This document shows, piece by piece, positions 15,752 to 61,945 of a DNA stretch of 64,000 bases; the first letter of the stretch is position 1; every line of letters begins with the position of its first letter. The DNA comes from Candidatus Latescibacterota bacterium (GTDB lineage: Bacteria > Latescibacterota > UBA2968 > UBA8231), in assembly GCA_965217585.1 (NCBI GenBank), contig OZ244561.1, forward strand, positions 3,328,001 through 3,392,000, read 5' to 3'. The position numbers and the translations under genes are program-made. The notes beneath the pieces were generated by a model. The model saw nothing but the letters and a program-made list of their open reading frames with translations, was not told where the DNA came from and did not search any database.

Positions 15752-15840
15752 GCTGTGTCATAACAGCGAAGGCCTCCTACTCACCCCTCGCCCGCCAAAA
15801 CCTCGCCCAATTCCCGCACCTACCCCTCGTCCTCGGATTA
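15752..15840 (-). repeat. Degenerate copy of the 3' end and downstream flank of gene 45880..47238
   Basis: CTGTGTCATAACAGCGAAGG...TCACCCC.CGCCCGCCAAA.CCTC aligns with 45852-45940. Confidence 0.8.
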
Positions 15841-15864
15841 TTCCATTTGTAATAGGAGGGTATT

Positions 15865-16497
15865 ATGAGCAAGATCAACACAGCGGTGATCACCGGACAA
15901 CATGCCTTTGATGTGCCGGGATTCCACGCGTTGTTCAGAAGTATTCCCGACATTGATTTTTATCTACAGGATTTGGAGAACTTTGCGGCAGATGCTGGCA
16001 AAGTCCGAGCGCAGTATGATGTCCTCGTGTTCTATAACTTCCATCGGCAGACGCCCGACGAAGGGAGCGTCAGGGAAGCCATTGAACAACTCGGTGAAAA
16101 TCAGGCGGGTATCTTGGTGTTGCACCATGCCATCCTCGCGTTTCCGCAGTGGCCATTGTGGTCGGATCTGTGCGGCATTCAAGATCGCAGTTTCGGTTTC
16201 AAGGTTGACCAAAACCTGCGTGTTGACATCGTGGATCCGCAGCACCCGATTCTCCGGGGATTGGCTCCGTGGGGAATGGTGGATGAGACTTATATCATGG
16301 CGGATCCGGGGGACGACAGTGACCTGTTGTTGACCACTGATCACCCTGAGAGTATGAAGACGCTGGCGTGGACTCGACAGTACAAGAACGCTCGGGTGTT
16401 CTGTTGTCAGTCGGGGCACGACAATCAGGTCTTTGCCGACCCAAATTTTCGCACGGTTATTGCGCGGGGTATTCAGTGGCTGGCGGGAAGGATCTAG
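15865..16497 (+). CDS. ThuA-like (class I glutamine amidotransferase fold) protein
   Basis: YDVLVFYN, GILVLHHA, DETY, LAWTR, GHD, RGIQWLAG; strong RBS AGGAGG. Confidence 0.85.
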   Translation: MSKINTAVITGQHAFDVPGFHALFRSIPDIDFYLQDLENFAADAGKVRAQYDVLVFYNFHRQTPDEGSVREAIEQLGENQAGILVLHHAILAFPQWPLWSDLCGIQDRSFGFKVDQNLRVDIVDPQHPILRGLAPWGMVDETYIMADPGDDSDLLLTTDHPESMKTLAWTRQYKNARVFCCQSGHDNQVFADPNFRTVIARGIQWLAGRI

Positions 16498-16511
16498 GGA
16501 GGAAAGGGTCA

Positions 16512-17462
16512 ATGCGGACGTTGAGTATTCAGGGCTTACCTGATAAGAGAAGGCAGAAAGTCCTGGTCCATGATTGGCCTGAGCCGGAGGGACCAACCGG
16601 CAACGAAGTCAAAACCGAGACGATCTACTCCGGGATAACAAACGGCACGGAACGCAATCAACTGATTGGCGGCAACTACGCTCCCAAAGATGAACAACTG
16701 CCCACCGGTGGAGGCGGCTACCAAAATGTGGGACGGGTGATTGAGGTGGGGCCCGCTGTCAGCGAACTACAGATTGGGGATGTGCTGTATATGAGTGCCG
16801 TCCATGCAGAGTACGTCGTGATGCCAGAAGATGGCTTGCTCATCAAGCTGCCTGACTCGATCGACCGCAAGGAGGCGGCGCTTTTTGGGATGACCAGTGT
16901 CGCCATGCGCACCTGCCGTAACGCCGAGTTGCAGATGGGAGAACGGGTGTTGCTCGTGGGGGCTGGCATCATCGGCCAGGTCGCCGCACAGATTGCTACC
17001 AGCATGGGAGCGCGCATCACGCTTTGCGATATCAATGCCAACCGGCTGGAGATTGCTAGGCAGATTGGTGCGGCTGAAACCGTGCTGGATGTTGCAGGGG
17101 ACGGATGGGAAAAAGGGATCGCTGACGGGACGTTCGATGCGGTGATTGACTTTGCCGGCGTACCGGGCATGGAGGATCAGCTTATCAGTGCTGTGCGCCA
17201 GCGCGGCCGGGTTGTATTCATCGCTGGACGGGACGAAGTGACCTATACCTTTAACCTCGGTCAGGGACGCGAGATCCAGCTAAAACAAAACAGTCATTTT
17301 GATCGCGATGACCTGCAGAATCTGTGTCGTCTGGTCGATCGAGGGTTGGTGAAGATTGGGCCCTTAATCCGCGATGTCGTCCCGGTGAGCGAAGCCAAGC
17401 GCATCTATGACACACTGCGGGATCCACCCGATGAACTGTTGGGGACGGTGTTTGTATGGTAA
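16512..17462 (+). CDS. Zinc-binding/MDR alcohol dehydrogenase family
   Basis: SGITNGTE, GYQNVGRVIEVG, GAGIIG Rossmann motif; start at MRTLSI after GGAGG. Confidence 0.83.
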   Translation: MRTLSIQGLPDKRRQKVLVHDWPEPEGPTGNEVKTETIYSGITNGTERNQLIGGNYAPKDEQLPTGGGGYQNVGRVIEVGPAVSELQIGDVLYMSAVHAEYVVMPEDGLLIKLPDSIDRKEAALFGMTSVAMRTCRNAELQMGERVLLVGAGIIGQVAAQIATSMGARITLCDINANRLEIARQIGAAETVLDVAGDGWEKGIADGTFDAVIDFAGVPGMEDQLISAVRQRGRVVFIAGRDEVTYTFNLGQGREIQLKQNSHFDRDDLQNLCRLVDRGLVKIGPLIRDVVPVSEAKRIYDTLRDPPDELLGTVFVW

Positions 17463-17501
17463 GCGAATTCGGTTGCCTCGCCTCTGGAAATCCATGCCGT
17501 T

Positions 17502-17948
17502 ATGATTGACCCCCCTTCGCACGAGCCGACCGGTTACCGCTGCCCGTTCTGCGCAATAGCAGGCGGCGCGGAATCCGAGTTTACGGCGTGGCGCGACGAG
17601 CATGTTCTGGTGCAGATTGCGCTGCACTGGAACCCAGCCAACCCCGGCAAGGCGCTGGTGATCCCGCTGGCACACATTGAGAACATCTACACGCTGCCCG
17701 ACGAGCTGGCCGGCCGCATCGCCCACATGGTGCGCCGCGTGGCGGTCGCCATCCGCACCGGGTATCCCTGTGACGGCGTGACGGTGCGGCAAAACAACGA
17801 GCCGGCCGGTGGCCAGGACGTTTGGCATCTGCACACGCACGTGATCCCGCGGTACATCGGTGATGGGAGGTATCTGGGAGTGCCCGTGCGGGCCGATGAT
17901 CGAGATCGTGCGCGCTACGCGGATCGCCTGCGCGAGCTTCTCAGGTAG
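17502..17948 (+). CDS. HIT family hydrolase
   Basis: CPFC and GGQDVWHLHTHVIPR (HxHxH). Confidence 0.92.
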   Translation: MIDPPSHEPTGYRCPFCAIAGGAESEFTAWRDEHVLVQIALHWNPANPGKALVIPLAHIENIYTLPDELAGRIAHMVRRVAVAIRTGYPCDGVTVRQNNEPAGGQDVWHLHTHVIPRYIGDGRYLGVPVRADDRDRARYADRLRELLR

Positions 17949-18113
17949 GACGCTGGGTGAACTACCCTGGCCTCGGAGTGTCTGCGCATCATCGGTTCGC
18001 AGTGGCTTTCCTTCCTTCGGAGAGGAGTTGCCTAGGTTATTCGAAGAGTTTAACGTGAAGTTGGTGTCGCAGCGTCGCAAAACGCCGTTGCCCATAGAAA
18101 AGGAGCATGACCG

Positions 18114-18314
18114 ATGTCAACCATATCGGAGATTCAGCAGGCGATCATAAGCCTTTCTAAATCCGACTACGCTCAACTGAGGCGCTGGCTCAATGAATAC
18201 GACTGGAAAGAGTGGGATCAGCAAATCGAAGCGGATTCGGACGACGGAAAGCTGGACTTCCTAGTTGATCAGGCCACGGAAGCCAAACGACAAGGCACGC
18301 TGGAAGACCTGTAG
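18114..18314 (+). CDS. Small putative antitoxin
   Basis: 66 aa, WDQQIEAD...GKLD.L; RBS AAGGAG; stop overlaps the toxin start. Confidence 0.75.
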   Translation: MSTISEIQQAIISLSKSDYAQLRRWLNEYDWKEWDQQIEADSDDGKLDFLVDQATEAKRQGTLEDL

Positions 18315-18568
18315 TGCATAGGACGACGCCCGCCTTCTGGTCACATTTCGAACGGCTGCCCGAAGCAGCCCAGAGAGTCGCAAGACGCAATTTCGAACGT
18401 CTCAAGGAGAATCCAAGACACGCCTCACTGCGATTCAAGAAAGTCGGCAGATTCTGGTCAGTCCGGGTCGGGCGTTCCTATCGTGCCCTCGCCGTTGAAG
18501 ATGGAGACGATTTTATATGGGTATGGATTGGCAGTCATGCCGACTACGATAGGATAGTTGGTCTGTAA
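18314..18568 (+). CDS. RelE/ParE-like toxin
   Basis: LKENPRHASLRFKKVG..WSVRVG.SYRAL...WVWIGSHADYD. Confidence 0.8.
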   Translation: MHRTTPAFWSHFERLPEAAQRVARRNFERLKENPRHASLRFKKVGRFWSVRVGRSYRALAVEDGDDFIWVWIGSHADYDRIVGL

Positions 18569-18577
18569 GGACTATTC

Positions 18578-19838
18578 CAGGGCAATCGCACCAAAAATTG
18601 AGATTTGTCATAGGGTTATGTTATATTTTCTGTGTCTTTTTCGATAGCGCTGGTGCGCTGCTTCTCTCCCCTTCTCTTGGAACGTTTCCCCATGGCACCT
18701 TCGGCTGATTCACTGATTGAACATTTTTCCCAGGTACCCGATCCCCGTATCGAGCGCAGCCAAAGGCATCGTCTCATCGATATTGTGGTCATTGCCGTGT
18801 GTGGCGCGATCTGCGGGGCCGACAACTGGGTGCATATCGCTGAGTTTGGGCGATCCAAATACGACTGGCTAAAAACCTTTCTGGCGTTGCCCAATGGCAT
18901 TCCTTCCCATGACACCTTCGGCCGCGTCTTCGCCCGGATCTCGCCCGAGCATTTCCAGGACTGTTTCAGTGCTTGGGTCCAATCCCTCCTCCCCAAGCTT
19001 GAGGAAGAGATTGTGCCTATTGATGGCAAAACGTTGCGCCACTCTTATGACCGAACCTCGGGTAAAGCAGCCGTACATATGGTCAATGCCTGGGCGGTGA
19101 AAAACCGACTGGTGTTAGGCCAGTTCCACTGTGAAGGCGGTCTGGACGAGATCACCCTCATTCCCGAACTGCTGCGTGTGCTGGCGCTCAAAGGCTGCAT
19201 CGTCACCGTCGATGCCATCGGCTGCCACAAAAGCGTGGCCGAACAGGTCATCGACCGGCAAGGCGACTACGTACTGGCCGTCAAGGCTAATCAGCCCAAG
19301 CTGTTGCATCATCTGCGTCAGGTCTTCGACCGAGGGGAGCCTCAACTGCATCAGGATCTATCGGTCGACATGTTTGAGACCTACGATGAAAACCACGGCC
19401 GCATTGAGACCCGCCGGTACTGGACCACCGATCAGGTCGACGCTTTTGCCGATGGGACCGCTTGGAAGGGCTTAGGCTTGTTCGGTATGGTTGAAGCCCA
19501 GCGACAGGTAGGCGATCAAGTCTCCGTGGAACGACGCTACTATATCTCCAGCCTGGACAACGATGCCCAGCGGTTTGGTGAAGCGGTGCGTAGTCATTGG
19601 AGCATTGAAAATTCCTTGCACTGGATACTGGATGTGGTCTTCCGTGAAGATGACTCACGGGTACGCACCGGCCATGCCCCGGAAAATATGGCCCTCCTGC
19701 GACAGATTGCCGTGAGTCTGCTCCAGCAAGAGAAGACGGCCAAGGTCGGCGTCCAGACCAAACGGCTCAAGGCCGGATGGGATAACACCTATTTGGCTAA
19801 AGTATTGTCCGCTGGGCACTTTTGATGCGATTGCCCTG
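18578..19838 (+). mobile_element. ISAs1-family IS, complete
   Basis: Terminal IRs CAGGGCAATCGCA/TGCGATTGCCCTG; 9-bp target duplication GGACTATTC (18569-77, 19839-47). Confidence 0.95.
18692..19825 (+). CDS. ISAs1 (H-repeat) transposase
   Basis: DPR, GIPSHDTFGRVF, IDGKTLR, HWSIENSLHWILDVVFREDDSR. Confidence 0.95.
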   Translation: MAPSADSLIEHFSQVPDPRIERSQRHRLIDIVVIAVCGAICGADNWVHIAEFGRSKYDWLKTFLALPNGIPSHDTFGRVFARISPEHFQDCFSAWVQSLLPKLEEEIVPIDGKTLRHSYDRTSGKAAVHMVNAWAVKNRLVLGQFHCEGGLDEITLIPELLRVLALKGCIVTVDAIGCHKSVAEQVIDRQGDYVLAVKANQPKLLHHLRQVFDRGEPQLHQDLSVDMFETYDENHGRIETRRYWTTDQVDAFADGTAWKGLGLFGMVEAQRQVGDQVSVERRYYISSLDNDAQRFGEAVRSHWSIENSLHWILDVVFREDDSRVRTGHAPENMALLRQIAVSLLQQEKTAKVGVQTKRLKAGWDNTYLAKVLSAGHF

Positions 19839-19997
19839 GGACTATTCATGTATCGAGGGATCTGCAAACGCTTTTTATGGAGCTGGCCTGACCCTTGTTC
19901 GGGCTCAGCGCCCTGACTGAGAATCCCAAAAGGGCCTTTATACCCCCACGTAGGATTGGGACTGTTTCAACATCGACAAATGCACAGGAGGCTTTAG

Positions 19998-22008
19998 ATG
20001 TCCACAATCGAACAAAGTCTTGAATTACTCACCTTGAAGAAGGTTTTCGCTGAGGGGGAAAGGTCATTTATAATTCCTGACTATCAACGCGGATACTCTT
20101 GGGAGCAGGACCAACGCAAGGACTTACTCAAGGATATAGAATATGGAATGAGCGGTGACTACAGCCACTATACTGGCACATTGGTTGCAGTCAAAAAATG
20201 CTCAATCCGAGATAATGATCGCTTCGAAATAGTAGATGGCCAACAGCGACTGACAACTCTGATAATCCTCTTGTCCTGCATCGCTCATGCCTTTAAACGA
20301 ATGAACACTGCGGTACCAGAGGATTTGAGGCGTTGCTTTATTGAAGAAGGGAGCGAGCGAGGATCAACCCTTCGCAATTCACCTTATCAGATGATCAGGA
20401 TTCCCTTTTCTGGCAGAAGGTCAACGAGCCCGACGCCAGTGGAACAGTTGAAAACAAGGGGGATCAAAACATTGTTGACGCATTTGACCAGTTTAAGAGA
20501 TGGTTAGAACTTGAAAATGAAACATCCCTTTATGAAATCTATGAATATGTTACGAGTAGCCTCGGATTCCTAATGTATGCCCCTGATGACACTAAAGAAA
20601 TAGGCATCATGTTCGAAGTTATCAATAACCGAGGTAAACCACTGAGTGAATTGGAAAAAGTTAAAAACCATCTTATGTATTATTCGGAAAAGAATGACAT
20701 TCAGGATTTAAAAACGGTCGTGAAGGACAAGTGGTCAAATATATTATTGAGGACTGCATAGCTAAAGGAATACGGTCTGGGACGAAGCAAGAGTGAGACG
20801 CCATTCCATTAGAAATGCAGAGATCAATAAGACACCTTAATGGCTGTAATCACACATCCAACGATGACGAAAATGGATTCCTCCGCAACTGCTGGATCGT
20901 ATTTCAGGACACTAATAAAAGCAAAAGCTTCTATGTATATGATAACCTGAAAGACCAGTTCCCCACCATCGAGGTCAACAATTGGGAGCGTCTCAGGGAG
21001 TTCGTCGCATTCCTCGAAGAATCAGCGCATACTTATCGGAAGCTTTATACAAGAGAAGATGTAACACATCAAGAAGAAAATGAATGCCTGACTCGTCTTG
21101 GAAATCAACCTGTATTGGCATCAGTGTTACCATTGATTCTTGTAATACTTAACCGCGAGACTGAAACCTCTACTAGAGTGACTTTATTGCAACTGATTGA
21201 AAAACTCAACTTTCGATTCTATGGGACAGGCATTGCCTCCCGGACTGATTCCGGACAGGGGGAACTTTTTGATTTGGCTCACAATTTCTATAACCATCAC
21301 TCAAAAACTCGTGAAGATGGTGTATTGGTCAATGCATCATGGCTTGAAGAAAATTTACGCAAATTTGTGGCAGATAATGCCAATGATCAAAAACTGATCA
21401 AACATCTGACATTGGATAAAGATGAATCAGGAGACTACTATTCTTGGTCATGGCTGAAATATTTTCTAGCAAGTTATGAGGGGCAATTGGAACGCAATGT
21501 GAAGCGTTCTGAAACATTAGGGAGAAAACTGGCTAAGAGAGACCCCCAAAATCCCAATGACTTTTATCATCTAGAACACATTTGGGCGGTTGGCGATTAT
21601 GAAAAAATTGATGATACATATAATCGTGACATAAATAAAAGGCGTCTTGGAAATTTTATATTGCTCAGAGAATCTCGAAACATAAGTATTTCAAACAAAC
21701 CACCTGAGGAAAAAGTTGAGGAATACCTTGAAAATTTAAAAGACACTCCAGATACATTGATGATTCGAGAATTGAAAGATTTATTCGATAAAGCGAGAGA
21801 AGAGATAGACAACAGACGAAGGAATAAGACATGGAGATATTGGTACGAAGTCTATGAAAGATTTCTCGATCTACACGAGGGAAAATACGTGAATTTTGCG
21901 CTAGATAGATGGCGGGTTGACGGTATTATTAAACCAGTGAAAGAGGTTGCTCTTAACAGTCTCTCAGACAGAAATGAAATTTATGAACTGAAATACGAAA
22001 ATATCTAG
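19998..22008 (+). pseudogene. GmrSD-like DUF262-DUF1524 restriction protein, split by a 1-bp frameshift (~20375) and an 81-bp insertion
   Basis: IPDYQRGYSW, VDGQQRLTT, FEVINNRGKPL, LEHIW, LGNFILL...N; AT-rich; the three ORFs join into one when both lesions are removed. Confidence 0.88.
20747..20827. mobile_element. 81-bp MITE-like element with TA target duplication
   Basis: Imperfect terminal IR (TTGAGGACTGCATAGCTAAAGGAAT / ATTCCATTAGAAATGCAGAGATCAA), TA on both sides; excision restores NILRHL in frame. Confidence 0.8.
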
Positions 22009-22226
22009 GATTGACCCTGATAGGTGCCGACGGGTAACCAAGCTGTACTGGGAGCTTTGTCGAAGAATCTGCAAACGATCTTCTCGGCTAACCTTTGCCT
22101 GTGCTTAGTGTCTTGACAAAGAACCTCAAAAGGATCCTTATTTTATCTATACTTTCGGTTGCGACGCCAGCGCTAGACAGGCGACTTGGTTAAGCAGCCC
22201 GCAACCAATAATAGTTAGGGGAGAGC

Positions 22227-25200
22227 GTGGCGGTTAAGGCCATCTTCGTCGGCATCAATCAACACCAGCATGCCGAGATTCCGGAGCTGAACGGTGCCCG
22301 GCGTGACGCGACGGCGTTGTGGGCATTGTTTACTGATACTATTGAAGAATTAGCGGCGAGACTGCTGGTTGATGAAGATGCGACCTATGTCGGGGTCTCG
22401 GACGCCATTCTTGGGATCCTGTCAACAGCGGAACACGATGACGTAATCGTTATCAGTTTCGCAGGTCATGGCTCACCAGACGGCAGTCTGGTGCTGTTCG
22501 ATACCGATGTGGCCGATCTCTCGGGCACAGCCCTGCCGATGGCAAAGTTGGCCGACGCGTTTAAGGCGACCAAAGCCCGTGCGGTTCTATGCATTCTTGA
22601 TTGCTGTTTCAGTGGCCAGGCCCCGGCACGTGTGCTTGAAACCGCATCAGTTCCGCGAAACGCCCTTGCGCTCGCGGACATCTACGGGGAGGGACGCATT
22701 CTGCTCGCGGCATGCGCCCCCAGTGAATCAGCGTGGGAACAGCCAGGCACCGGCCATGGGCTACTCACCTATGCCGCAATAGAAGCCCTAACCAAGGCTG
22801 AGGGAGAGTCGGTGAGCTTTCCCGAGATCGCCGGCGAGATCATCCAGTTGACACGCACCGAGGCGGATCGGATCGGTGTGACCCAAACGCCGGTCTTCTT
22901 GGGAAGCGTGCAAGGCGGCCTGACCTTTCCCGTGCTCAAGCGCGGCGACAACTTCGCTGCGGCGTTTCCCGCGGTCGCGATCCACAAGATGACGGGAACA
23001 TTTGCGGAGTTCGCAAACCACGGGCTTCCCCCGGAAATCGTCGAGCAGTGGACGGCAAATTTTCCGCAGGGGCTCAACGAACTGCAACTCACAGCGGTCA
23101 ACGAGCACGGAGTACTCGAAGGCAAGTCATTGCTCGTCGTCGCACCGACAAGCTCAGGCAAGACGTTGATCGGCGAGTTGGCCGCGGTCCAGGCGGTCAC
23201 GGCCGGAAAGAAAGCGGCTTTCCTCTTGCCGTACCGCGCGTTAGTCAACGAGAAGTTCGATGATTTTAGCCAGCGTTACGGCCCGGCAGGGGTGAGGGTT
23301 GCCCGGTGCAGCGGCGACGCGACGGATGGTATCGGTCCGGTGCTATGCGGTCGCTACGATCTCGGCTTCTTCACATACGAGACCTTCCTCAACTTAGCGC
23401 TCGGCTCGCCACGCCTGCTGAACCAATTGGGCTTGGTGGTGCTCGACGAGGGGCAATTCATCACCGATCCGCATCGCGGAATCACCGTGGAGCTTATCCT
23501 CGCGCTGCTGCTAAGGGCGCGCCAGCAGGGTATCCAACCCCAACTCATGGTGTTATCAGCCGTCATCGGCAACCTCAACAACTTTGATCACTGGCTCGCC
23601 TTGCCAGTGCTGAGGTCGCACAAGCGGCCCGTACCGTTGATCGAAGGCGTGCTGGATCGCTGGGGCAAGTTCCAATTTGTCGATGTGGACGGCGCGACGA
23701 AGACGGAGGAGTTGCTGCCGACACACCAAATCGTGCAACGCCGAGACGAGCCGAGTTCGCAGGACGTGATCGTGCCGTTGGCGAAGCACTTGGTCGCGAA
23801 TGGAGAGAAGTTGCTAATCTTCCGCAACATGCGGGGCACCACCCAGGGGTGCGCCCGGTATTTGTCAAAAGAGCTGGGGCTCGGTCCCGCTACCGTAGTT
23901 ATCGACGATCTACCGAACCAGGATTTGACGGGAGCCTCGCAAAACTTACGCGAGTGCCTGCTCGGCGGAACGGCGTTTCACAACACGAATCTCTTGCGCG
24001 CTGAGCGTGAAGCGATTGAAAAGGGCTTCCGCAACTCTGCTGGTGGGATTCACGCCTTGGCCGCCACCACGACCTTGGCTGCCGGCATCAATACGCCTTC
24101 ATCCACCGTAGTCCTCGCGGAAAACGAGTTCGTGGGGGAGGACGGGCGTCCCTTCACTATCGCAGAGTACAAGAACATGGCCGGACGTGCCGGGCGCCTT
24201 GGCTACAACGAAATCGGCAAGGCCATTATCCTCGCCGATACGCCGTTCGAGCGAGCCCAGCTTTTCCACAAATATGTGTTGGGAACGCCAGAACCTGTCG
24301 CCTCATCGTTCCAGCAGAGCGATCTTCCGACCTGGACACTACGTCTGCTGAGCCAGGTGCGTCGCGTGCAGACTAGCGAAATTCCTAGCCTCTTAGTTAA
24401 CACGTTCGGTGGATACTCGGCCTCTCGGTCCAATCCCCAGTGGGTCCGGTTGGTAAAGGCCGAGGTGTCGGCGTTCGTCGCGCGGCTACTGAAGGCCGGA
24501 CTGGCGGAGCAAGAGGGCGACCTCATCTATTTGACCTTGCTCGGGCGGGCCTGCGGGTCTTCGTCGCTATCGTTCGAGTCGAGCCTGCGGCTGATCGAGC
24601 TAATGAAGGAATTGAACGCCGCACAAGCTCCTCCTGTTCACATGCTTGGATTCATCCAGGTTCTCGACGAGATGGACGCTATCTATACACCTGTGATGAA
24701 GAGGGGCCAGTCCGAGAGCGTTCGCGCGAGCGATGTGGCGCAGCGCTTCGGCCATCAAATGACTCAGATACTACAGCGTTACTGTCGGGATTACTTCGAG
24801 TACTATTCGCGATGCAAACGCGCGTCGCTTCTGTATGACTGGATTAAGGGTACGCCTGTCGAAGTCATTGAGAAGCAATTCTCAACAACGCCTTTCCAGG
24901 GAGCGATTGGCTACGGCAACATCATTGGCATTGCTGATGGTGCACGATTTCACCTTCGCTCCGCGCATCAGATCCTTTCGACCTTGTTCCCGGAAGAACA
25001 GGAGTTTCTTGCGGCGGTGGACGAATTACTGCTGCGACTTGAATTCGGATTACCTGTGGCCGCGATTCCCCTTACCGCCCTGCCCTTGGCATTAAGCAGG
25101 GGACAATACTTGGCCCTCTTTGCGGCAGGCTGCTCGACAGCCGATGAGGTGAACGAGCTTGAGATGGACACGCTCACCGAATGCGTCGGTGCAAATGTCG

Positions 25201-25232
25201 CGTCCTTACTTCGACCGGAGCAGCAAGATTAG
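22227..25232 (+). CDS. Caspase-like (C14) peptidase fused to Ski2-like SF2 helicase
   Basis: FVGIN, FAGHG, ILDCCFSG (His/Cys dyad); APTSSGKT, LDEGQ, SAVI, ATTTLAAGINTP, NMAGRAGR. Confidence 0.9.
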   Translation: MAVKAIFVGINQHQHAEIPELNGARRDATALWALFTDTIEELAARLLVDEDATYVGVSDAILGILSTAEHDDVIVISFAGHGSPDGSLVLFDTDVADLSGTALPMAKLADAFKATKARAVLCILDCCFSGQAPARVLETASVPRNALALADIYGEGRILLAACAPSESAWEQPGTGHGLLTYAAIEALTKAEGESVSFPEIAGEIIQLTRTEADRIGVTQTPVFLGSVQGGLTFPVLKRGDNFAAAFPAVAIHKMTGTFAEFANHGLPPEIVEQWTANFPQGLNELQLTAVNEHGVLEGKSLLVVAPTSSGKTLIGELAAVQAVTAGKKAAFLLPYRALVNEKFDDFSQRYGPAGVRVARCSGDATDGIGPVLCGRYDLGFFTYETFLNLALGSPRLLNQLGLVVLDEGQFITDPHRGITVELILALLLRARQQGIQPQLMVLSAVIGNLNNFDHWLALPVLRSHKRPVPLIEGVLDRWGKFQFVDVDGATKTEELLPTHQIVQRRDEPSSQDVIVPLAKHLVANGEKLLIFRNMRGTTQGCARYLSKELGLGPATVVIDDLPNQDLTGASQNLRECLLGGTAFHNTNLLRAEREAIEKGFRNSAGGIHALAATTTLAAGINTPSSTVVLAENEFVGEDGRPFTIAEYKNMAGRAGRLGYNEIGKAIILADTPFERAQLFHKYVLGTPEPVASSFQQSDLPTWTLRLLSQVRRVQTSEIPSLLVNTFGGYSASRSNPQWVRLVKAEVSAFVARLLKAGLAEQEGDLIYLTLLGRACGSSSLSFESSLRLIELMKELNAAQAPPVHMLGFIQVLDEMDAIYTPVMKRGQSESVRASDVAQRFGHQMTQILQRYCRDYFEYYSRCKRASLLYDWIKGTPVEVIEKQFSTTPFQGAIGYGNIIGIADGARFHLRSAHQILSTLFPEEQEFLAAVDELLLRLEFGLPVAAIPLTALPLALSRGQYLALFAAGCSTADEVNELEMDTLTECVGANVASLLRPEQQD

Positions 25233-25406
25233 GATGCTCATGAGTCCTTGACTCAGGCACGCCTCCTTTGCGCAAGCCCCGGCACCGCCGGGAGGAGAAA
25301 CGAACCCGTGACTCCGCCATGGTTTTATCTTCTTCCACGGCGCTGAGCGGACCGACGGCGATCTGGATAGGGTCAGATGCCGGTCCGCCCCTATCTATCA
25401 GACTAA

Positions 25407-26275
25407 GAAGCTGTTGAGTTATTCAGATGCATTTAGCGACCGTACTCTTTATCATGGCAATACGAATCATGTTCTCTGCGGATTGGGTGAGGATTTCGAA
25501 GTCTTTCGCCAAGCGTCGAAATCCACCCAACCAAGCCAAGGTTCGTTCGATGATCCAGCGTTTGGGCACCACTTGGAACCCTTGGGTTGGTTTATCCGCT
25601 ATATCGAGTCGCAACCCCAACAGGTTTTCAACGAATTCAACGGTGGTACCGCGATAGCCTTGGTCGCCGCAGAAGGCTTCGACCGAATCATACTTTTCCG
25701 CGACCCGATCACATACGTCCCATCCTTGGCTGGTATCGGCCACATGGGCGGCATGTACTTGGATGGTCAGCATATTACCCAGCGTATCGGTGGCGAGGTG
25801 GCGTTTACGTCCTTTGATCTTTTTTCCCCCCATCCACGCCTCGATCCTGACTGGCATATTGGGTTTTAACCGATTGCGAATCGATCAAGGCATAGGTCGG
25901 ATGTTCGTTTTTGCCCTGCTTGTGACGGGCGCGCTCATTCAGCGCGTCCAAGGCTTGTTCCCACACGCCACGCTGATTCCAGCGTCGGTAATGGTCATAG
26001 ACGGTATCCCAAGGGGAAAATCAAGCGGCAGCATCCGCCACGGAATACCCCCTTTGACGACATATAAAATGGCATTGACCACCTCGCGTTTGGCATACTT
26101 GCCGGGGTTGCCCCGGGGATCAGGACGGTCGAAAAACCCCGCGATCAGGGCCCATTCTGGATCAGTCAAGTCACTTGGATACCCGCCCATACTAAAAGCC
26201 TCCCTGCGCAAAAAAGACAGCAAGCAATACATTATACATACAATACATACAGAGCTTTTTTAACTCAACAGCTTC
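25407..26275 (-). mobile_element. IS5-family (IS1031-like) IS
   Basis: Perfect 15-bp IR GAAGCTGTTGAGTTA/TAACTCAACAGCTTC flanked by TAA on both sides. Confidence 0.92.
25423..26190 (-). pseudogene. IS5-family transposase with frameshifts
   Basis: YPSDLTD.EW, WRMLPLDFP, GKKIKGRKRH, KRWIIERT; shifts at a C run (~26012) and at a G6A5 slippery site (~25820). Confidence 0.85.
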
Positions 26276-26432
26276 TAATGATTGTGGAAGCCTGTATTTA
26301 TTCGCTCTGAAGTAGTTCCAGGGGCGAGAGCAGGAGATGGTTCGTCCCATCCGACCATGCGCTTTCGGCGCATAAAAAAGCGCCCGATGCTAGTGAGACA
26401 TCTGACGCTTTGCAGGGGGCGAAGGGTGGGGC

Positions 26433-26650: not shown

Positions 26651-26685
26651 AGTTACGGATTGTCTTTGCTAAACAGAACGCAGTC

Positions 26686-27852: not shown

Positions 27853-27884
27853 TGACGGTTGGGCTGGGGCTGGCACGCAAAACA

Positions 27885-27915: not shown

Positions 27916-27972
27916 GTGTAGTATTGCACCGGGCCACCGTAGGGAACGACGGTGCTTATTCTCTACTCATTA

Positions 27973-50812: not shown

Positions 50813-52090
50813 TATAACTCACTTGGACTATTATTCGATGCGAATAGCGAGAAATCACGTATAGCTTTGTGTTTGGATTTTGGATTACTATGTGCGTGAG
50901 GAGTATCTTCGCTAAGTGAATCGAATAGCGTCTGTTGGCTATGATTATCTTGGCGATGTGCATCTTTGTTTACGAAATCGCCCATAGCCTGAAGTCCGCT
51001 ATCAAAGCGCTTTAGTATCGTCTTTATCGCTTCAATGCTATTATCTGCACCTATCCAATTGCGTTGCATTTCGTCCGCAACAGCAAGGGTTGTCCCAGAA
51101 CCGGCAAAACAATCAAGCACCATATCACCGGGATTAGAAGAAGCAGCAATAATTCTTCTAATTAACCCTGGATTCTTTTCAGTTGGGTAGCCAGTAATTT
51201 TTATATTCTGGTTATGTGCATCACGGAACTCCAACCATATGTCCTGAACACTAACTCCAGGATGTTCATCAAGATAAACCTTTCTTCTTGGATTTCCGTT
51301 CTTTGACCAGAATATTTCTCCCCTCGCGTCCATTTCATCTAGCCTCTTAGGCGTGTACTGCCAGTGTTTGCCCGGGGGAGGCATTTCCCCCCTCCATGGT
51401 TTACCAGTTTCCCCCTTGCGTGTTCCCGGGGCATGGACAGGGACTTTCATATACTTCCGTCCAGTACCCTCTTCGACGTACTGATATTTTTTTTCTTTCT
51501 TCAGATAAAGGGACAGTTTGTTTATTCCATATATACTTATCTGTTTTGGTATAAAAAAGTACGAAATCTGCAATATTGCCGTATGTTTTTCGCGTATAGT
51601 TTTTAGGATTACATTTCTTCCGAACAATCATATTTCTGTAGTTTTCTGGTCCAAATACTTCATCCATGATAATTTTTATTTCGAAAATCATTTTTTCATC
51701 TAAGTGTAGGTAAATCGATCCTTTATTCGACAACAATTTATGAAGCAAAACAATTCTTTTACGTAAAAATTCAACGAATGGAGCACCACTCAAGGTGTCT
51801 TCATATGCTCGTGATTGCTTTCGGGAAACAAATTGACTTTGAGTGGCAAATGGAGGGTCTATGTATATGAGATGTACCTTTCCGCATACATTAGGATCTG
51901 TCACAAGGACGCGAAGGACATCGAAATTATCGCCGAAATACAATCGCTTATGAGATGGATTGGAATGGAGCTTATCAAAAGGGACTATGGAACCATTGAA
52001 TATTTCTTCCTCAGTCGCTTTACCTCTATAATCGAGATGCACTCCACTATCTAAGAGAGTATTATTTTTTTTGGGAATACCGATTGCCAT
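50797..52090 (-). pseudogene. N6A/N4C DNA methyltransferase (beta class), frameshifted at an A8 tract (51487-51494)
   Basis: IYIDPPF in the 5' ORF; YPTEKN and VLDCFAGSGTT in the 3' ORF; AT-rich. Confidence 0.88.
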
Positions 52091-52116
52091 ATCTAATATC
52101 CTTTCCTTCAAACTCG

Positions 52117-53031
52117 CTAAATCGACGCGAACCAGTCCTTGTCCACTTCCACGACCTCGACCATCTTTGCGGACACGCCGAGTTTGAGTTCCTTCATTTT
52201 ATCCATTAGCAATTCGCCGTCAATCAAGTCTATCGGCGTCGCGCCATCCCGGGTGGCTTCTCGTTGCGCCTCTATTGTGAAGCGACCCGTTGTCAAGATA
52301 AGGCCCTTTTCCGCCCGTCCTACCATCGCGCCGCGAAAGTCCCTGACCACGCTTGCGCCAACGCTGCCGCTGTAGCGCTTGCACTGGAACAGTACGGGAA
52401 AGCTAATCAGCCCCGCGAGACGGATTATGCCATGCCCGTCGATTCCGCCGTCGCTCGATTTTCCCGTGACCTCAACCTCGATAAAGCCCGATTCCCGCAA
52501 GAGCCTTTGGCACAAGCGTTCGAATGCGTCGGGAGGGATGTTGCGGAGGGTGTCGAGCAAATCCTCACGCCAAGAAGCGGTTTCATCTGCGGGGTCTTCG
52601 GCTGAGTTTTCGATTTCTTCGGCTAGGGTGCCTTCCTCAGTTTTCGTTTTTTTGCGAGATCGCTTCTGTTTCAGGTATCGCTGATAAGAATCAACAACTT
52701 CTTTGGAATCAACACGTTGTGTCTCCTGCCCTTTAGCAGTAAGAGACCATACGCCTCTCTCCGAATTATCAATTAAGCCGTAGTTTTTAAGGAAGGTTCT
52801 CGCAAAGCTCAATCGGTACTCTAGCTCTGTCATACGTTCTGCTTGCCCGCTTTTTTTTCCTCGCGCGCAAGGTATTTGAGTAATAGCAGCAGACAGGCCC
52901 ATATCTTCAATTACTTGATTGGCGATTTCGCGCTTGGAAGCACTGCCTCCAAGCGCGTGGAGCGCGGTAAGTGTAGGATTTAGTAGATCAGACTCCCTCG
53001 GGACGTTATCTACATTGACGTTGTCAGTCAT
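52117..53031 (-). CDS. mrr: Mrr-family type IV restriction endonuclease
   Basis: Mrr_N wHTH (LGGSAS, ART.LK..GLI...RGVWSLT); FERLC..LL, DGGIDG, QCKRY, LIDG. Confidence 0.92.
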   Translation of the reverse strand: MTDNVNVDNVPRESDLLNPTLTALHALGGSASKREIANQVIEDMGLSAAITQIPCARGKKSGQAERMTELEYRLSFARTFLKNYGLIDNSERGVWSLTAKGQETQRVDSKEVVDSYQRYLKQKRSRKKTKTEEGTLAEEIENSAEDPADETASWREDLLDTLRNIPPDAFERLCQRLLRESGFIEVEVTGKSSDGGIDGHGIIRLAGLISFPVLFQCKRYSGSVGASVVRDFRGAMVGRAEKGLILTTGRFTIEAQREATRDGATPIDLIDGELLMDKMKELKLGVSAKMVEVVEVDKDWFASI

Positions 53032-58981: not shown

Positions 58982-59851
58982 ATGAAAGACTATTCGCACA
59001 TTCAGAAGCCGGACTTGGGCTATCGCTATGAGTTTGCCACCGATGAACTCGACGCGATGGACGAGTGCTTGGAGGCGCACGGCTTCGCGGTGATCAAAGA
59101 CGTGCTGCCGCCGGAGATCGTCGCCAAGCTCAAGCAGGCGGTGTGGGACGGCACGGACCCGGAGCACACGTTGCAACCGGGCGAGAGCCGCACGCGGCAC
59201 GCTTGGATCGAGTCCGGCCCGGGCGCTTGGGAAGTGCTCGACTACGAGCCTTTCATGGACATTCACCGGCACCTGATCGGCACCGACGAACTGACGCTCC
59301 ACCGCTCGGCCGCCATCATCCGCCGGACTGGCTCGGCTCCCGTGGGGTGGCATACCGATTGGTGCGGCTACTCGACCGAGATCAAGCATTCGGGCGACGT
59401 CCTCAACCGCGGACTGTGGCCGTCGGGCAAGTGGTTCTACCTGACCGGCTCGCGGCCCGAGCACGGCGGCCTGTGCGTCATTGAGGATTCCCACGTCGAA
59501 GATTGGGAGGGGCCGGAGGGATTCAGCATGACGGCCGACCGGCGCTCCTTCTACCCGGAGGGCACGGAGGAACGCGGCTACAACGGCTTCGACATCCCCG
59601 GCCTCGTCCCCCTCTTCACCAACGGCGGCGACATGATCGTCTTCGCCCATCGCACGTATCACGGCGCGTTCCCCAACCGAATTGAAGAAACGCGCCTCTC
59701 TTGCGGCATCGGCTTCCGTCCCCGCAACCACCGCATCGACATTCCCTGGGAAATCCCCGAGGGAGGCCAGTGGTTTTTGGCCAACCTACCCGAGCATTTG
59801 CGCCGCTATACGGACGGGTACACGAGCATCAATTTGGAGTGGCAGGGCTGA
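58982..59851 (+). CDS. PhyH-family dioxygenase
   Basis: HGFAVIKDVL, WHTD, GLCVIEDSH, GDMIVF..RTYHG; RBS AGGAGG. Confidence 0.85.
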   Translation: MKDYSHIQKPDLGYRYEFATDELDAMDECLEAHGFAVIKDVLPPEIVAKLKQAVWDGTDPEHTLQPGESRTRHAWIESGPGAWEVLDYEPFMDIHRHLIGTDELTLHRSAAIIRRTGSAPVGWHTDWCGYSTEIKHSGDVLNRGLWPSGKWFYLTGSRPEHGGLCVIEDSHVEDWEGPEGFSMTADRRSFYPEGTEERGYNGFDIPGLVPLFTNGGDMIVFAHRTYHGAFPNRIEETRLSCGIGFRPRNHRIDIPWEIPEGGQWFLANLPEHLRRYTDGYTSINLEWQG

Positions 59852-59906
59852 CTGACCAGGACTAATCCTCGCGGCGCGGGCGGACCACAGTTTCGCCGAC
59901 CGGTTC
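59851..59906 (-). repeat. Copy of the 3' end and flank of PhyH gene 61109..61945 (61098..61153)
   Basis: 45-bp core CTAATCCTCGCGGCGCGGGCGGACCAC.GTTTCGCCG.CCGGTTC with 2 mismatches, plus 8/11 flank match. Confidence 0.92.
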
Positions 59907-59926
59907 CTGAAAGAAGAGAGATCGCC

Positions 59927-61069
59927 ATGAAGGATACTCGTCCCCGACTGCTCTTCAATTCCCGTGGGCGCTTGGGCGTATTTGACCTGAATGATTCGCG
60001 GATATGGTATCCTCGCCCGGACGTTCCGGGCATGGTCAGTTGGAGCTGGGGGCCGGTCTTCGAAGATCGTCGCCGGGTGATCGTGTCCGGTTGCGAACCC
60101 GGCAAGGCCTGGGAAGGCAACGTAAGGGTCCATCTGTGGATATATGACCTAGATGAAAACCGGCTGCTGGGGGAGATCGCCCGCAAAAACAGGCCCGCCC
60201 CCTTCATGGTGTGCAGTCATATCCTGCCGGGGGAAGATCGCCTCGTGATGAACCCGATCATCGACGGGAAACAGCGCGTCTGGACCATGGATCTGGATGG
60301 TTCCGAGCCACGGGAAATCACGCGCGTCGAAGACGGGTTTGTTTATTGCGTCCAGATCAGCCCGGACGGCCAGAAGATCGCGTACCACGCGACCATGCTG
60401 TCCGGCCGGGACAGTTACTGCGTTTTCGTCTCGGACCTGGACGGAGGCAACCGGGTGGAAGTCGCCTCGGCCCTGGGTCACTTGTACTTCGGACCCATGT
60501 GGTCGCCGGACGGAAAATGGCTGATCTACCAAGACTGCCACTATCCCGACGATCCGGGCCACGACTGGGCGGACCTTTGCCTGGGCAGCAGAGATGGGTC
60601 GATAAACCGGAAGGTCACGGAGGGCCAGCGCCAGTGGTTCGCCACGTCCTACGGCGACCCGGAAACCCGGGGTGGCGGTTCCAACATGGCCCAGTGGACG
60701 CCGGACGGAAAAAGGGTAACCTACACCCGGGCAGAGCCCGGTTCTCAAACGGCTTGGCCGTACCAGGCGGAACGGCCGGATACCGATCATTTCAACCGGG
60801 ACTACTACCCGGAGGACGCCCGCGGCGGCACCGCCATATGTCTGCTCGATCCCTTTACGGGCGAGGAGACGGAGTTTATACCCTGCGAATCTCGCGTCTG
60901 GAATTTCCGTGCGGTCTGGTCGCCGGACGGCTCTATGTTTGCCTTCTGCCGCGCCGAGGTTGGTTCACCGAGCAGCCTGTGGCTGGTCAATGCCGACGGC
61001 AGTGCCCCGCGCATGTTGACCGACGGATACGAACACCAGGGTGCGGATCACCCGCTATGGGTGGTGTGA
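59927..61069 (+). CDS. TolB-like (PD40 repeat) beta-propeller protein
   Basis: ISPDGQKIAY, WSPDGKWLIY, WTPDGKRVTY, WSPDGSMFAF. Confidence 0.83.
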   Translation: MKDTRPRLLFNSRGRLGVFDLNDSRIWYPRPDVPGMVSWSWGPVFEDRRRVIVSGCEPGKAWEGNVRVHLWIYDLDENRLLGEIARKNRPAPFMVCSHILPGEDRLVMNPIIDGKQRVWTMDLDGSEPREITRVEDGFVYCVQISPDGQKIAYHATMLSGRDSYCVFVSDLDGGNRVEVASALGHLYFGPMWSPDGKWLIYQDCHYPDDPGHDWADLCLGSRDGSINRKVTEGQRQWFATSYGDPETRGGGSNMAQWTPDGKRVTYTRAEPGSQTAWPYQAERPDTDHFNRDYYPEDARGGTAICLLDPFTGEETEFIPCESRVWNFRAVWSPDGSMFAFCRAEVGSPSSLWLVNADGSAPRMLTDGYEHQGADHPLWVV

Positions 61070-61108
61070 CGGGAGCTAGTCCCTCCCTCTGTAGTGAACT
61101 GGCTAGGG

Positions 61109-61945
61109 CTAATCCTCGCGGCGCGGGCGGACCACGGTTTCGCCGTCCGGTTCGATGAGGGGGTGATGGTAGATGTAGGGCGGTTCGAGCACTGCCTGCT
61201 GCGCTGCGGTCAATTCCGACACCCATTCTGGTTGGCTGACCTCGTATGTGCCGCCGTCGTAGTGCAGGTACTTCGGCGTGTACCGGTAGAGCAGGGCGCG
61301 GCGGTCGTGGTCCGCCTGCCACGGCAGGGTGCCGTGCAAGGTGTTTTCGCTAAAGATGACCATGTCGCCGGCCTTCAGGGGCACTTGGTAAACAACCTCT
61401 TGGTGCTCCTCCCAAGTAGTGATCTTCGCAGGGCAAGAAAAGTTTGCCTTGTGGCTGCCCGGGATGACGCAGAGGCCGCCGTCGCCGGGATTCTGATCGT
61501 GTAAAGTGTACTGGACGACCAGAAGGCCACAGCGCATTTGGCCGTTGGAGTACGCGTAGAAGCGGGAGCCATTGAAGAGGACGTTGGTGGTGCCGTGGAT
61601 GCGCAGGCCTTCGATTCCTTTAGGACCGGTAATCATTAACGGCTCGTGGTCGAGCTTCCAGCCGCGTCCGTGCAGGGTGTCGAGGTAGGGCAGGAGCTTG
61701 CGGTGGGCGAGCAGGTCGCGGAATGGCTGGCAATGGGGCTGCTCCCAGGTGAGCATGTCGGTGAAAAGGCCGCGCTTGTTCGTTCCAGCCATGTTGCCGC
61801 TGGGGTCGCCGATTGGGTCTTCGCGGCGCTGGTCCCAGTTGGCGTCGAAAGCGTCGTTGAGCGCTTTGACTTCGCCTTGCGAGAGGAACTCGCGGACGAC
61901 GGTGAAGCCCTGCAGGTCGAAGAGGAATTTTTCGGTGTCGTTCAT
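61109..61945 (-). CDS. PhyH-family dioxygenase (HGT variant)
   Basis: FDLQGF.VV, IHGT, IPGSHK, AGDMVIF.E.TLHGT; paralog of 53067. Confidence 0.85.
   Translation of the reverse strand: MNDTEKFLFDLQGFTVVREFLSQGEVKALNDAFDANWDQRREDPIGDPSGNMAGTNKRGLFTDMLTWEQPHCQPFRDLLAHRKLLPYLDTLHGRGWKLDHEPLMITGPKGIEGLRIHGTTNVLFNGSRFYAYSNGQMRCGLLVVQYTLHDQNPGDGGLCVIPGSHKANFSCPAKITTWEEHQEVVYQVPLKAGDMVIFSENTLHGTLPWQADHDRRALLYRYTPKYLHYDGGTYEVSQPEWVSELTAAQQAVLEPPYIYHHPLIEPDGETVVRPRRED

Follow-up and report, generated by a model that had tools for sequence, protein, structure and literature searches.

Integrase targets typically show identity blocks that stop where the target gene ends. Insertion with long target duplication was reportedly described by Nobusato et al. 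in 2000, and homology-facilitated illegitimate recombination (HFIR) from one-sided homology is said to have been characterized by de Vries and Wackernagel in 2002 and by Prudhomme et al. in 2002. Furuta et al. 2010 (PMC2853133) describe restriction-modification (RM) genes between direct repeats of more than 30 bp with the empty site in a relative; a start or stop site is often included in the repeats, so that the target gene stays intact, and the class is defined there for RM genes and ascribed to their DNA-breaking activity. One-sided homology in E. coli yielded, in the work of Amarir-Bouhram et al. 2011 (PMC3240628), 56 of 60 recombinants with a duplication of 109-950 bp of the homologous segment by single crossover. 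In T6SS and Rhs arrays HFIR has been put forward as the mechanism of sequential displacement (Kirchberger et al. 2017; PMC5361080), and it has likewise been suggested to act at dimorphic loci (PMC2884548).

The window, which is the whole 64-kb stretch of DNA that was analysed, contains gene 3' ends (stubs) that recur as direct repeats behind the gene of origin (the anchor), with cargo genes in between. A sequence-only reading had named four anchors, and all of its repeats were recovered at or near where it had placed them. Each of these repeats includes the stop codon of its anchor, every anchor-to-copy pair within the window has a BLAST E-value of 1e-11 or less, and the four named repeats are genuine and not chance matches. 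The predicted enrichment of 3' ends was also obtained genome-wide, where 168 of 5125 genes had their final 60 nt repeated in direct orientation no more than 50 kb downstream, compared with 104, 93, 105, 100 and 100 genes in five controls (Poisson p = 5e-10), an excess of about 65 genes. The genes were called with a crude caller of our own whose start codons are unreliable, which blurs the 5' control; the internal-60-mer control is independent of start positions. By a strict definition there are at least 33 anchors (36 pairs) in the genome, in line with the recurrence that had been claimed. Repeat edges cluster 0-5 nt behind stop codons, where 47 were counted against an average of 6.8 per 6-nt bin, the same genome-wide count showed no pile-up at gene starts, and at gene 159723 two independent cargoes both begin at stop+2. 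The statements that anchors lack a common sequence and that most cargo is neither RM-related nor accompanied by an integrase were likewise borne out: no common junction motif was found across the anchors, the cargo consists of ordinary or defence genes, and a Pfam scan of 20 cargo proteins placed 15 in families, none of which (0 of 15) is mobility-related.

The 472-aa anchor gene (45880-47298, minus strand, no Pfam family) has an ortholog with 88-95 % amino acid identity in 16 of the 24 same-genus genomes searched and is a core gene of the genus, with a stop codon that borders a hot spot of variable cargo; homology with 10 relatives stops 0-34 nt past this codon. Its 3' end is found again at three places. 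Stub a (41716-41882, minus strand; 167 nt, 84 %, E-value 7e-47) is a dead copy of the final 148 nt of the gene with 19 nt of flank, adjoins an older neighbour gene (DUF6615) and is found in the related genome G011 as well. The cargo between stub a and the anchor (41883-45879) comprises PD-Lambda-2-like defence genes (B and C proteins), a DUF6932 gene and a 210-aa gene; it is missing in G005 and G012, in which 83-155 nt separate Fic from the anchor, and G011 has 460 bp in its place. Stub b (32777-32909, minus strand; 103-115 nt at 86 % in 32777-32889) is an older copy just downstream of the Fic gene, in which a further match of 32866-32909 to 46159-46203 indicates a 191-nt internal deletion; its stop-containing part is gone in G012, which is consistent with decay. 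Stub c (15753-15840, minus strand; 89 nt, 82 %) consists of 56 nt of the anchor's 3' end and 27 nt of flank and lies 30 kb off, between MR_MLE and ThuA genes, at a site that has no stub in G005 and a creatininase gene in G003 and G012. All three stubs are nearer to the gene ends of relatives than to that of G000, the genome under study; stub a is 84.5 % identical to the latter versus 91-92 % to those of G001, G011 and G012, and the last 148 nt are the most divergent part of the G000 gene.

At the PhyH anchor (61109-61945, minus strand), the terminal repeat at 61098-61153 recurs at 59851-59906 (minus strand, 51 of 56 nt identical), where the stub abuts the stop of a convergent PhyH paralogue (58982-59851), just as in relatives with the empty site; a strain in sequencing run X23 has a 19-nt deletion within this stub. 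The cargo (59907-61097, plus strand) is a single PD40/WD40-like propeller gene (59927-61069), and at least the last 14 nt of the cargo resemble the flank beside PhyH in the alleles of other genomes.

The HIT gene (17502-17948, plus strand) had been listed as a further anchor with a smaller repeat than the one found. Positions 17741-18420 (plus strand), which hold the last 208 nt of HIT and 472 nt beyond its stop, including a 66-aa ORF, match 37298-37965 (plus strand) over 680 nt at 87 % identity, and both copies then run into related IS elements (71 %). The HIT piece of the second copy (about 37298-37506) is a terminal passenger of an imported HD-CE segment and not a HIT-anchored insertion. 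This HD-CE cargo (34541-37568, plus strand), made up of an HD-CE/HATPase gene (34642-37212) and the HIT 3' fragment, is flanked by a 107-nt intergenic direct repeat (34434-34540 and 37569-37675, both plus strand, 83 % identical), and G011 has the empty site, a single 107-nt copy joining Fic to the sORF-HepT genes.

The expectation of empty sites in relatives was confirmed for 7 of the 12 anchors examined, with single-copy alleles at PhyH (11 of 30 relatives), mrr (three), gene 159723 (five), gene 2921931 (two), gene 1988102 (two), gene 363851 (one) and the 472-aa gene (two), and the repeat structures themselves also occur in relatives. The native flank stays with the stub and the cargo flank with the gene, and in the two cases checked the differences of each repeat copy track its own flank across genomes. 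In the deacetylase case, the clearer of the two, the gene end of G000 carries TAA and is followed by cargo, and its stub carries TGA and the native flank; the empty-site genomes G001 and G019 have TGA, in G011 a newer cargo of 5.4 kb is followed by a displaced 65-nt stub with TAA and the cargo seen in G000, and G012 has that newer junction without a stub. In the radical-SAM case, the two stubs in G000 and G001 have in common about 18 % differences relative to their gene ends, and a displaced stub of the gene-end type is still joined to the radical-SAM gene in G019. This linkage implies that the cargo came with the donor's gene end and that the resident end was displaced.

We consider it reasonably probable that the repeats are scars of integrase-independent, homology-anchored import at hot spots beside conserved genes. 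A donor fragment from a related genome would bring the 3' part of a conserved gene with the cargo behind it, and would either form a circle that enters through one crossover in the short stretch of homology at the gene end, or recombine homologously at the gene side and be joined illegitimately at the cargo side. The resident gene would keep an intact, now donor-derived end followed by the cargo, and its own last 30-200 nt would be pushed behind the cargo with the old downstream flank still attached. Repeated import at one gene would build stub arrays, and the stubs would be functionless and would decay; stub decay is observed. We infer a RecA-type recombination pathway and, likewise, the route of DNA entry; the peak at stop+0-5 nt may arise because cargo and gene end form one haplotype in a compact genome, with selection purging damaging joints.

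Single-crossover recombination or HFIR at hot spots fits this pattern. As in the one-sided-homology experiments, a single homologous arm is enough, the duplication flanks the insert and site specificity is absent; those experiments used engineered laboratory substrates, whereas the structures here are natural footprints with shorter repeats of 29-185 nt that always lie at gene ends. As in T6SS, Rhs and CDI displacement, new modules that enter beside a conserved upstream gene shift the former 3' end, along with the genes next to it, downstream, and arrays build up. There, the conserved 5' or core portion of a polymorphic toxin gene acts as the arm and a variable 3' end is displaced, whereas here any gene can serve as arm, what is displaced has homology to the end that is kept, and the cargo bears no relation to the anchor.

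Several observations count against homology-anchored import. It accounts only in part for how sharply the edges peak 0-5 nt behind the stop. At least 100 nt of apparently non-coding cargo comes after the stop in 9 of the 36 pairs (33 anchors), native spacers behind stubs are up to 200-800 nt long, and the two independent cargoes of gene 159723 share their start at stop+2. Repeats of 29-50 nt are short for a RecA-dependent crossover, stub c is not accounted for, and the gene calls are crude. In one nested case the younger stub has 89 % identity to the gene end and the older one 100 %, so that gene conversion is needed as an extra assumption, and a stub-free donor-type allele was seen for one cargo only. 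The DAO and creatininase genes, both single ORFs, sit at loci that vary from genome to genome, and their homology is confined to the ORF, which import allows but does not predict: DAO lies between other genes in about 15 relatives at a site that is precisely empty in G000, and creatininase is found at three different positions.

Strict insertion with long target duplication, in which cargo alone would enter at staggered breaks 30-200 nt apart and fill-in would duplicate the target, would give an identical end architecture. Direct repeats of more than 30 bp, the one-copy empty site and inserts without mobility genes are all shared with that class, and the mrr locus of relatives is a textbook example. 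In G002, G022, G012 and G042 a methyltransferase gene and a neighbour gene of 291-315 aa lie between the copies of a 93-137-nt repeat that covers both the mrr stop and the beginning of the following gene, matching the class defined for RM systems. In the window, mrr (52117-53031, minus strand) has its terminal repeat at 52113-52152 and a stub at 49601-49640 (minus strand, 39 of 40 nt identical) that retains the native junction to a DUF167 gene (49332-49592). The cargo between them (49641-52112, minus strand) holds a frameshifted N6/N4 DNA methyltransferase gene (50797-52111) and an IS630-family element (about 49671-50817) of which three copies with 100 % identity lie at other places in the genome and which is lacking from this locus in contigs of other runs, and G000 has a 1080-bp deletion from one gene's stop to 4 nt past the mrr stop. 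The mrr repeat named by the sequence-only reading is present, and it is a remnant of a 93-137-nt duplication around a degraded RM insertion. The repeat at the older cargo of gene 2921931, which reaches 31 nt past the stop, also suits target duplication. As a general account it is nevertheless unlikely: both copies should then derive from the resident, whereas allele-specific, flank-linked differences are seen that argue for import on a homologous arm; the PD40 cargo ends in locus-specific flank; and random stagger with selection would not fix one edge at 0-5 nt behind the stop, since repeats that extend beyond this would do no harm. In contrast to the RM class, the cargo here is mostly ordinary metabolic or defence-related, and at least 33 genes in one genome are involved.

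Site-specific integration, with an att site mimicking the gene 3' end, tandem accretion, later loss of integrases and small cassettes moved in trans, is distinctly improbable. The 472-aa gene with its three-stub array favours it, and the likeness to integrase islands in gene 3' ends and to integron arrays extends to identity blocks that stop at the gene end, newest cargo nearest the anchor and arrays of remnants. A tyrosine integrase gene (31222-32226) lies about 550 nt from stub b, in a 14.3-kb island (17955-32215) that begins 7-14 nt behind the HIT stop and also holds an IS element, split GmrSD genes, a HamB-like helicase, an MpaB-like gene and an 894-aa secreted protein. This island is absent in G012, yet the sequence beside stub b is kept there, and no att-like repeat flanking the island was seen. 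Unlike in integrase islands and integrons, neither a cognate recombinase nor a common recombination site or core motif was found: at least 33 anchors stand against five matches to the tyrosine-recombinase family PF00589, the one searched, in the whole genome, inserts of 0.4-2.5 kb contain one ordinary gene, the repeat length differs between events at one gene (54 vs 71 nt; 45 vs 66 nt), and the junction position within one anchor already varies in a few genomes.

A dedicated, undescribed process that places ORF-sized cassettes behind stops independently of target sequence, such as a novel recombinase or an RNA-templated route, is very doubtful; the sequence-only reading had inferred a lineage-wide, sequence-flexible route. 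In its favour are the sharp edge peak even where spacers are long (native spacers behind stubs reach 200-800 nt), the many inserts that consist of just one ORF, in one orientation or the other, with flanks of 10-50 nt, the precise empty DAO site and three creatininase positions, and the stop-to-stop+4 deletion at mrr. No motif, candidate enzyme or terminal structure was found for it. Some junctions in relatives lie inside the coding sequence, 16 and 35 nt before the stop, and the HD-CE event in the window uses an intergenic repeat; special targeting of stop codons is not supported. Such a process would also not need cargo linked to donor gene ends, as it is in the resolvable cases, which point to homology-driven import; ORF-limited homology at 10 % genome divergence can reflect fast spacer decay. 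The sequence-only interpretation is partly supported, in that the acquisition of genes is real and sequence-flexible, but there is probably no dedicated machine behind it, and the similar density of such structures in 0.8 Mb of an outgroup family means that lineage specificity is not shown.

Tandem-paralogue remnants, pseudogenes or assembly artefacts are scarcely credible as the source, even though in each control class about 100 genes match a direct repeat close by, mostly a paralogue, and locus 3653063 sits inside a paralogue array, since the excess is restricted to the 3'-end/downstream class, the exact empty sites in relatives largely refute this account, the assembly is a single 7.32-Mb contig, contigs from other sequencing runs span the repeat junctions, and the same structures occur in the independently assembled genomes G001, G011, G002, G022 and G012.

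Self-comparison of the window confirmed that all of the repeats described in the sequence-only reading exist: the 3' ends of a 472-aa gene, HIT, mrr and PhyH reappear downstream with other genes in between. The resident gene is referred to here as the anchor, the dead displaced copy of its end as the stub, and the DNA between them as the cargo. The observation itself was confirmed, and its interpretation as sequence-flexible insertion of cassettes behind stop codons was supported in part. The window sits in a single 7.32-Mb contig of the source genome, G000, in which 5633 genes were called using a simple codon-usage scorer (a crude gene set with unreliable start codons), and G000 was compared with itself in 100-kb pieces. 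This gave 50 pairs from 43 genes in which a 3'-end copy had a downstream non-coding partner, versus 37 pairs from 23 genes for the mirrored 5'-end case. A strict set, with repeats of at most 200 nt ending at most 12 nt past the stop, contained 36 pairs from 33 genes, with repeat lengths of 29 to 185 nt. The last 60 nt of a gene were repeated directly within 50 kb downstream in 168 of 5125 genes. Controls gave 104 genes when the search ran upstream with this probe, 93 and 105 when the probe was the first 60 nt, and 100 and 100 when it was an internal 60-mer (Poisson p = 5e-10, binomial p = 1e-4). The enrichment check proposed with the original observation was therefore positive, with an excess of approximately 65 genes over controls of 93 to 105. 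In a histogram of all repeat edges, which takes in paralogue pairs and in which the edges are not all independent, 47 edges lay 0 to 5 nt past a stop, versus a mean of 6.8 per 6-nt bin elsewhere; a shoulder was present just within the coding end, and gene starts had no peak.

Single-copy alleles without cargo (empty sites), which the sequence-only reading had proposed to look for, were found in relatives for 7 of the 12 anchors examined. Elsewhere in the genome these included the genes at 159723, 2921931, 1988102 and 363851; a search of five relatives gave no empty site for 2988986, 4992228, 6618467, 5839753 or 3653063, the last of which lies within a paralogue array and could not be interpreted. 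In every case checked, the cargo adjoined the intact gene, and the stub retained its junction with the native downstream flank. Stubs decay: in G001, five of 49 nt are mismatched, and in G005 an internal deletion is present. Nested stubs occur behind a 169-aa gene (G000:C1:2919431-2921995), the older being 100 % identical to the gene end and the younger 89 %; the older carries a variant found in no relative, which suggests gene conversion between the repeat copies.

PhyH (61109-61945, minus strand) has its last 45 nt and stop repeated at 59851-59906 (51 of 56 nt identical), with one PD40-type propeller gene between the repeats. In 11 of 30 genus genomes, a result checked at sequence level, a single copy of the 56-nt repeat is shared by both flanks, and two convergent PhyH genes lie 0 to 35 nt apart. 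At this junction, six other genomes have different, stub-free inserts of 0.6 to 2.8 kb. A search for the PD40 gene in the 30 genomes gave weak 68 % partial matches in two and nothing more, and the PD40 cargo ends in at least 14 nt matching the flank beside this PhyH gene in alleles of other genomes. On the stub side, the sequence corresponds to the compact allele found in the closest relative, and a strain from another sequencing run has a 19-nt deletion in the stub. These comparisons point to the import of a single gene into a compact convergent junction.

Target duplication and import on a homologous arm produce the same final map and differ in the origin of the two repeat copies. The copies have few differences for an allele-to-flank test at PhyH and gene 159723, and allele-specific differences linked to the flanks were found in the deacetylase, radical-SAM and 472-aa cases. 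At gene 363851, the G000 gene terminates in TAA, with the start codon of the deacetylase cargo immediately after it, and the stub has TGA and the native flank; the empty-site alleles of G001 and G019 also have TGA. In G011, a displaced 65-nt TAA stub is joined to the same deacetylase cargo behind a newer 5.4-kb insert, which is joined 16 nt within the coding sequence and provides the gene with a new short end, and G012 has the newer-insert junction with neither stub nor deacetylase. The deacetylase junction is common to G000 and G011 and the stub-free newer junction occurs in G012; no other examples of either were found. At gene 2988986 (radical-SAM cargo), G000 and G001 have matching stubs that are approximately 18 % different from their gene ends. 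In G019, behind a new 1.9-kb insert whose own junction is 35 nt inside the coding sequence, the radical-SAM gene is still attached to a displaced stub of the gene-end type.

The 472-aa gene (45880-47298, minus strand) has three partial copies of its 3' end, designated stub a (41716-41882, 167 nt, 84 % identity), stub b (32777-32909, 86-89 %, with a 191-nt internal deletion) and stub c (15753-15840, 89 nt, 82 %, 30 kb from the gene). All three match the gene ends of relatives better (up to 90-92 %) than the gene's own end in G000 (82-86 %), and the most divergent part of the G000 gene is its last 148 nt. In G005 and G012, the Fic gene directly follows the 472-aa gene, and stub a is missing along with the 11.4 kb at 34410-45873. 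Stub a is present in G011 with another filler, of 460 bp, G012 has lost part of stub b, and G001, G010 and G007 have unrelated DNA past the stop. This distribution fits successive imports, in which import of the Fic gene would have produced stub b and a later cargo stub a, after which a PD-Lambda-2-like defence set would have replaced the filler. Stub c falls outside this account; a mobile creatininase gene was considered as its source, and the link was not shown. The creatininase-family gene (12625-13371) occupies three different positions among relatives, one of them immediately past the 472-aa stop and another at the site of stub c in G000, and is present in two copies in G003.

As import predicts, the gene end at the cargo is of donor type and the displaced copy is of resident type, still on its native flank. 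The deacetylase, radical-SAM, PD40 and 472-aa results together are evidence that cargo and a donor gene end arrived together and displaced the resident end. The footprints match those of import with homology on one side, as known from laboratory work in Escherichia coli and as proposed for T6SS and Rhs arrays and dimorphic loci. [quoted passage not shown] Homologues of ComEC and DprA were considered as a sign of competence; they are present but, judging by control genomes, too widespread to serve as one.

Insertion with long target duplication (Furuta 2010), the repeats of which are described as often spanning start or stop sites (PMC2853133), has the same architecture. In that class the flanking repeats exceed 30 bp, as do the direct repeats of the window (40, 56, 107 and 167 nt; genome-wide pairs start at 29 nt), a relative has a one-copy empty site, as here for the 7 of 12 anchors, and the insert is shorter than 20 kb without mobility genes, which applies here except for the IS630 element at mrr and the 472/HIT region. 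The inserts of that class carry both R and M homologues, whereas here a methyltransferase is found at the mrr locus only and the remaining cargoes are not restriction-modification genes. The term target duplication also implies that both copies derive from the target, whereas the allele differences observed here are linked to the flanks. Compared with that class, the cargo (genes of any type) and the scale are different here, and one copy of the repeat comes, on the present evidence, from a donor.

The mrr locus is a classic restriction-modification insertion with long duplication that has since eroded, the G000 form being a degraded derivative. The last 36 nt and stop of mrr (52117-53031, minus strand) are repeated at 49601-49640 (39 of 40 nt), with a frameshifted DNA methyltransferase and an IS630 element in between, and the site is empty in G001, G041 and G003. 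G002, G022, G012 and G042 have an intact methyltransferase and a neighbour gene of 291-315 aa within a 93-137-nt repeat, which extends over the mrr stop and roughly the first 80 nt of the following gene, DUF167; G013, G014 and G021 appear to share this arrangement. The 291-aa neighbour gene of G002 matched no Pfam family. G000 lacks a 1080-bp segment that begins at the stop of the neighbour gene and ends 4 nt past that of mrr, and the neighbour gene itself has been deleted. The N6/N4 DNA methyltransferase at 50797-52111 is split by a frameshift into two overlapping ORFs, leaving an orphan, decaying restriction-modification remnant adjoining mrr. Contigs from other sequencing runs contain an IS-less form and an empty-site form of the locus. 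The IS630-family element (49671-50817, DDE_3 and HTH ORFs) has three 100 % identical copies elsewhere in G000, which suggests that it is probably active.

The position of the peak 0 to 5 nt past the stop can be accounted for in part by the end of alignment together with selection. In a compact genome (median spacers in G000 of 28-66 nt), the territory of a gene would end at its stop, so that haplotypes with different neighbours would stop aligning there, and selection would trim a broader distribution of joints, for which the joints inside coding sequences in relatives are as expected. Outside this explanation are at least 100 nt of apparently non-coding cargo adjoining the stop in 9 of the 36 pairs (33 anchors), native spacers of up to 200-800 nt behind some stubs, and two unrelated inserts that begin at an identical position behind gene 159723. 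A deletion ratchet that would place the edge at the stop accounts for mrr but fits poorly with the persisting stubs and the long non-coding cargo flanks, and the 200-800-nt native spacers argue against chance. The FAD-oxidoreductase (DAO) gene at G000:C1:161091-162225 lies behind gene 159723 in G000, G001 and G005; in approximately 15 relatives it lies between two convergent genes at a site that is exactly empty in G000 (2340171-2340179), and in G012 the DAO cassette is flanked by an imperfect repeat of approximately 9 nt. The DAO and creatininase relocations, together with the unexplained junction features, leave a small probability for a dedicated, as yet undescribed process that would excise single-ORF cassettes and insert them a few bases behind the stop of any gene, with these relocations as its activity; we regard such a process as distinctly improbable.

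Many inserts consist of one ORF, pointing either way and bordered by 10-50 nt at both ends. Pfam families were assigned to 15 of 20 cargo proteins from small inserts, and all were ordinary: FAD oxidoreductase, polysaccharide deacetylase, PhyH, radical SAM, homocysteine methyltransferase, redoxin, an enolase-superfamily enzyme, glutamate dehydrogenase, permease, ABC transporter, MazF, HepT, FG-GAP and LRR proteins. No mobility-related family was among these 15, in agreement with the earlier claim that most inserts lack an integrase; mobile genes do occur as the IS630 element in the mrr cargo (a later insertion) and, in the large 472/HIT region, as IS elements and an integrase. Integrase/att islands have a cognate recombinase beside an att copy and share a constant repeat core, whereas here the window has one integrase and the whole genome five PF00589 matches, a count that covers tyrosine recombinases. 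In 36 junction sets no shared k-mer was enriched at the junctions or within the repeats, as expected from the claim that the anchors share no sequence, and repeat length varies at one anchor. Scans of the window for tRNA, tmRNA and Rfam families gave no match, hence no RNA-gene integration target is present there. Integron cassettes would be marked by attC-like imperfect palindromes at their ends and an IntI/attI platform; the observation bearing on them is that the k-mer search of junctions gave no common cassette-end motif.

With blocks of 20 kb, a block-wise pipeline detected 25 anchors in G000 (366 blocks) and, in an underpowered outgroup of two genomes from another family of the same class, 2 anchors in 40 blocks (0.8 Mb) with 2.7 expected; two further examples were found in 200 kb from ten relatives. 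The footprint is shared within the genus and, on this small outgroup sample of similar density, not evidently special to it. Gene gain at hot spots without mobile-element genes is an open question in genome evolution, and displaced gene-end stubs are a countable and datable footprint of such gain, comprising at least 33 genes strictly and approximately 65 in excess over controls, or roughly 1 % of the genes in one genome. The cargo ranges from defence genes (PD-Lambda-2-like, HD-CE and a restriction-modification cassette) to plain metabolic genes. No genome-wide description or census of displaced 3' gene ends as an integrase-free footprint of gene gain was found in the literature searched. If the footprint is general, it would provide a measure of one-sided-homology recombination in nature, distinguish donor from resident alleles, and give the order of successive acquisitions at each locus from sequence alone, also in uncultured lineages.

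A hot spot of defence genes adjoins the 472-aa gene at its stop. Between the window repeats are the PD-Lambda-2-like set (42792-45659), a SoFic-like Fic gene, HD-CE/HATPase, HepT-like and DUF6615 genes, two related IS elements, split GmrSD genes in a low-GC stretch, a HamB-like helicase and a tyrosine integrase. The region at 42206-45659 matches the PADLOC models PD-Lambda-2_B and PD-Lambda-2_C, contains a DUF6932 gene and a 'cll'-like 210-aa gene as well, and is probably a defence system riding as cargo. The HIT repeat (17741-18420 and 37298-37965, 680 nt, 87 %) is larger than first reported and extends 472 nt past the stop. A further repeat of 107 nt, absent from the sequence-only reading, lies at 34434-34540 and 37569-37675, with a third copy at 18024-18130 and a single-copy empty site in G011. 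The HIT fragment at 37298 is the far end of a 3-kb import carrying the HD-CE gene, which integrated via the 107-nt intergenic repeat, so that this event has no gene end as its anchor; the repeat taken to mark HIT as an anchor is real, but the insertion went through the intergenic repeat and not the HIT end. Relative to G012, a 14.3-kb integrase-bearing island starts 7-14 nt past the HIT stop, and no att-like repeats were visible at its flanks. Its integrase (31222-32226), the only one in the window, is followed by a 40-nt palindrome and a T run (32262-32301), which looks like a terminator and is conserved in G012 without the integrase. Two IS elements with DDE_Tnp_1 and DDE_Tnp_1_assoc domains (18632-19825 and 39074-40279), only 71 % identical at the DNA level, each lie a few hundred bases behind a copy of the 680-nt repeat. 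The GmrSD N-terminal and C-terminal domains at 19998-22008 are on two separate ORFs of 38-43 % GC, compared with 59 % for the genome, and may represent either a split or a broken gene. The 1001-aa helicase at 22227-25232 matches Hachiman HamB models, with an N-terminal match to the PADLOC 'caspase' model.
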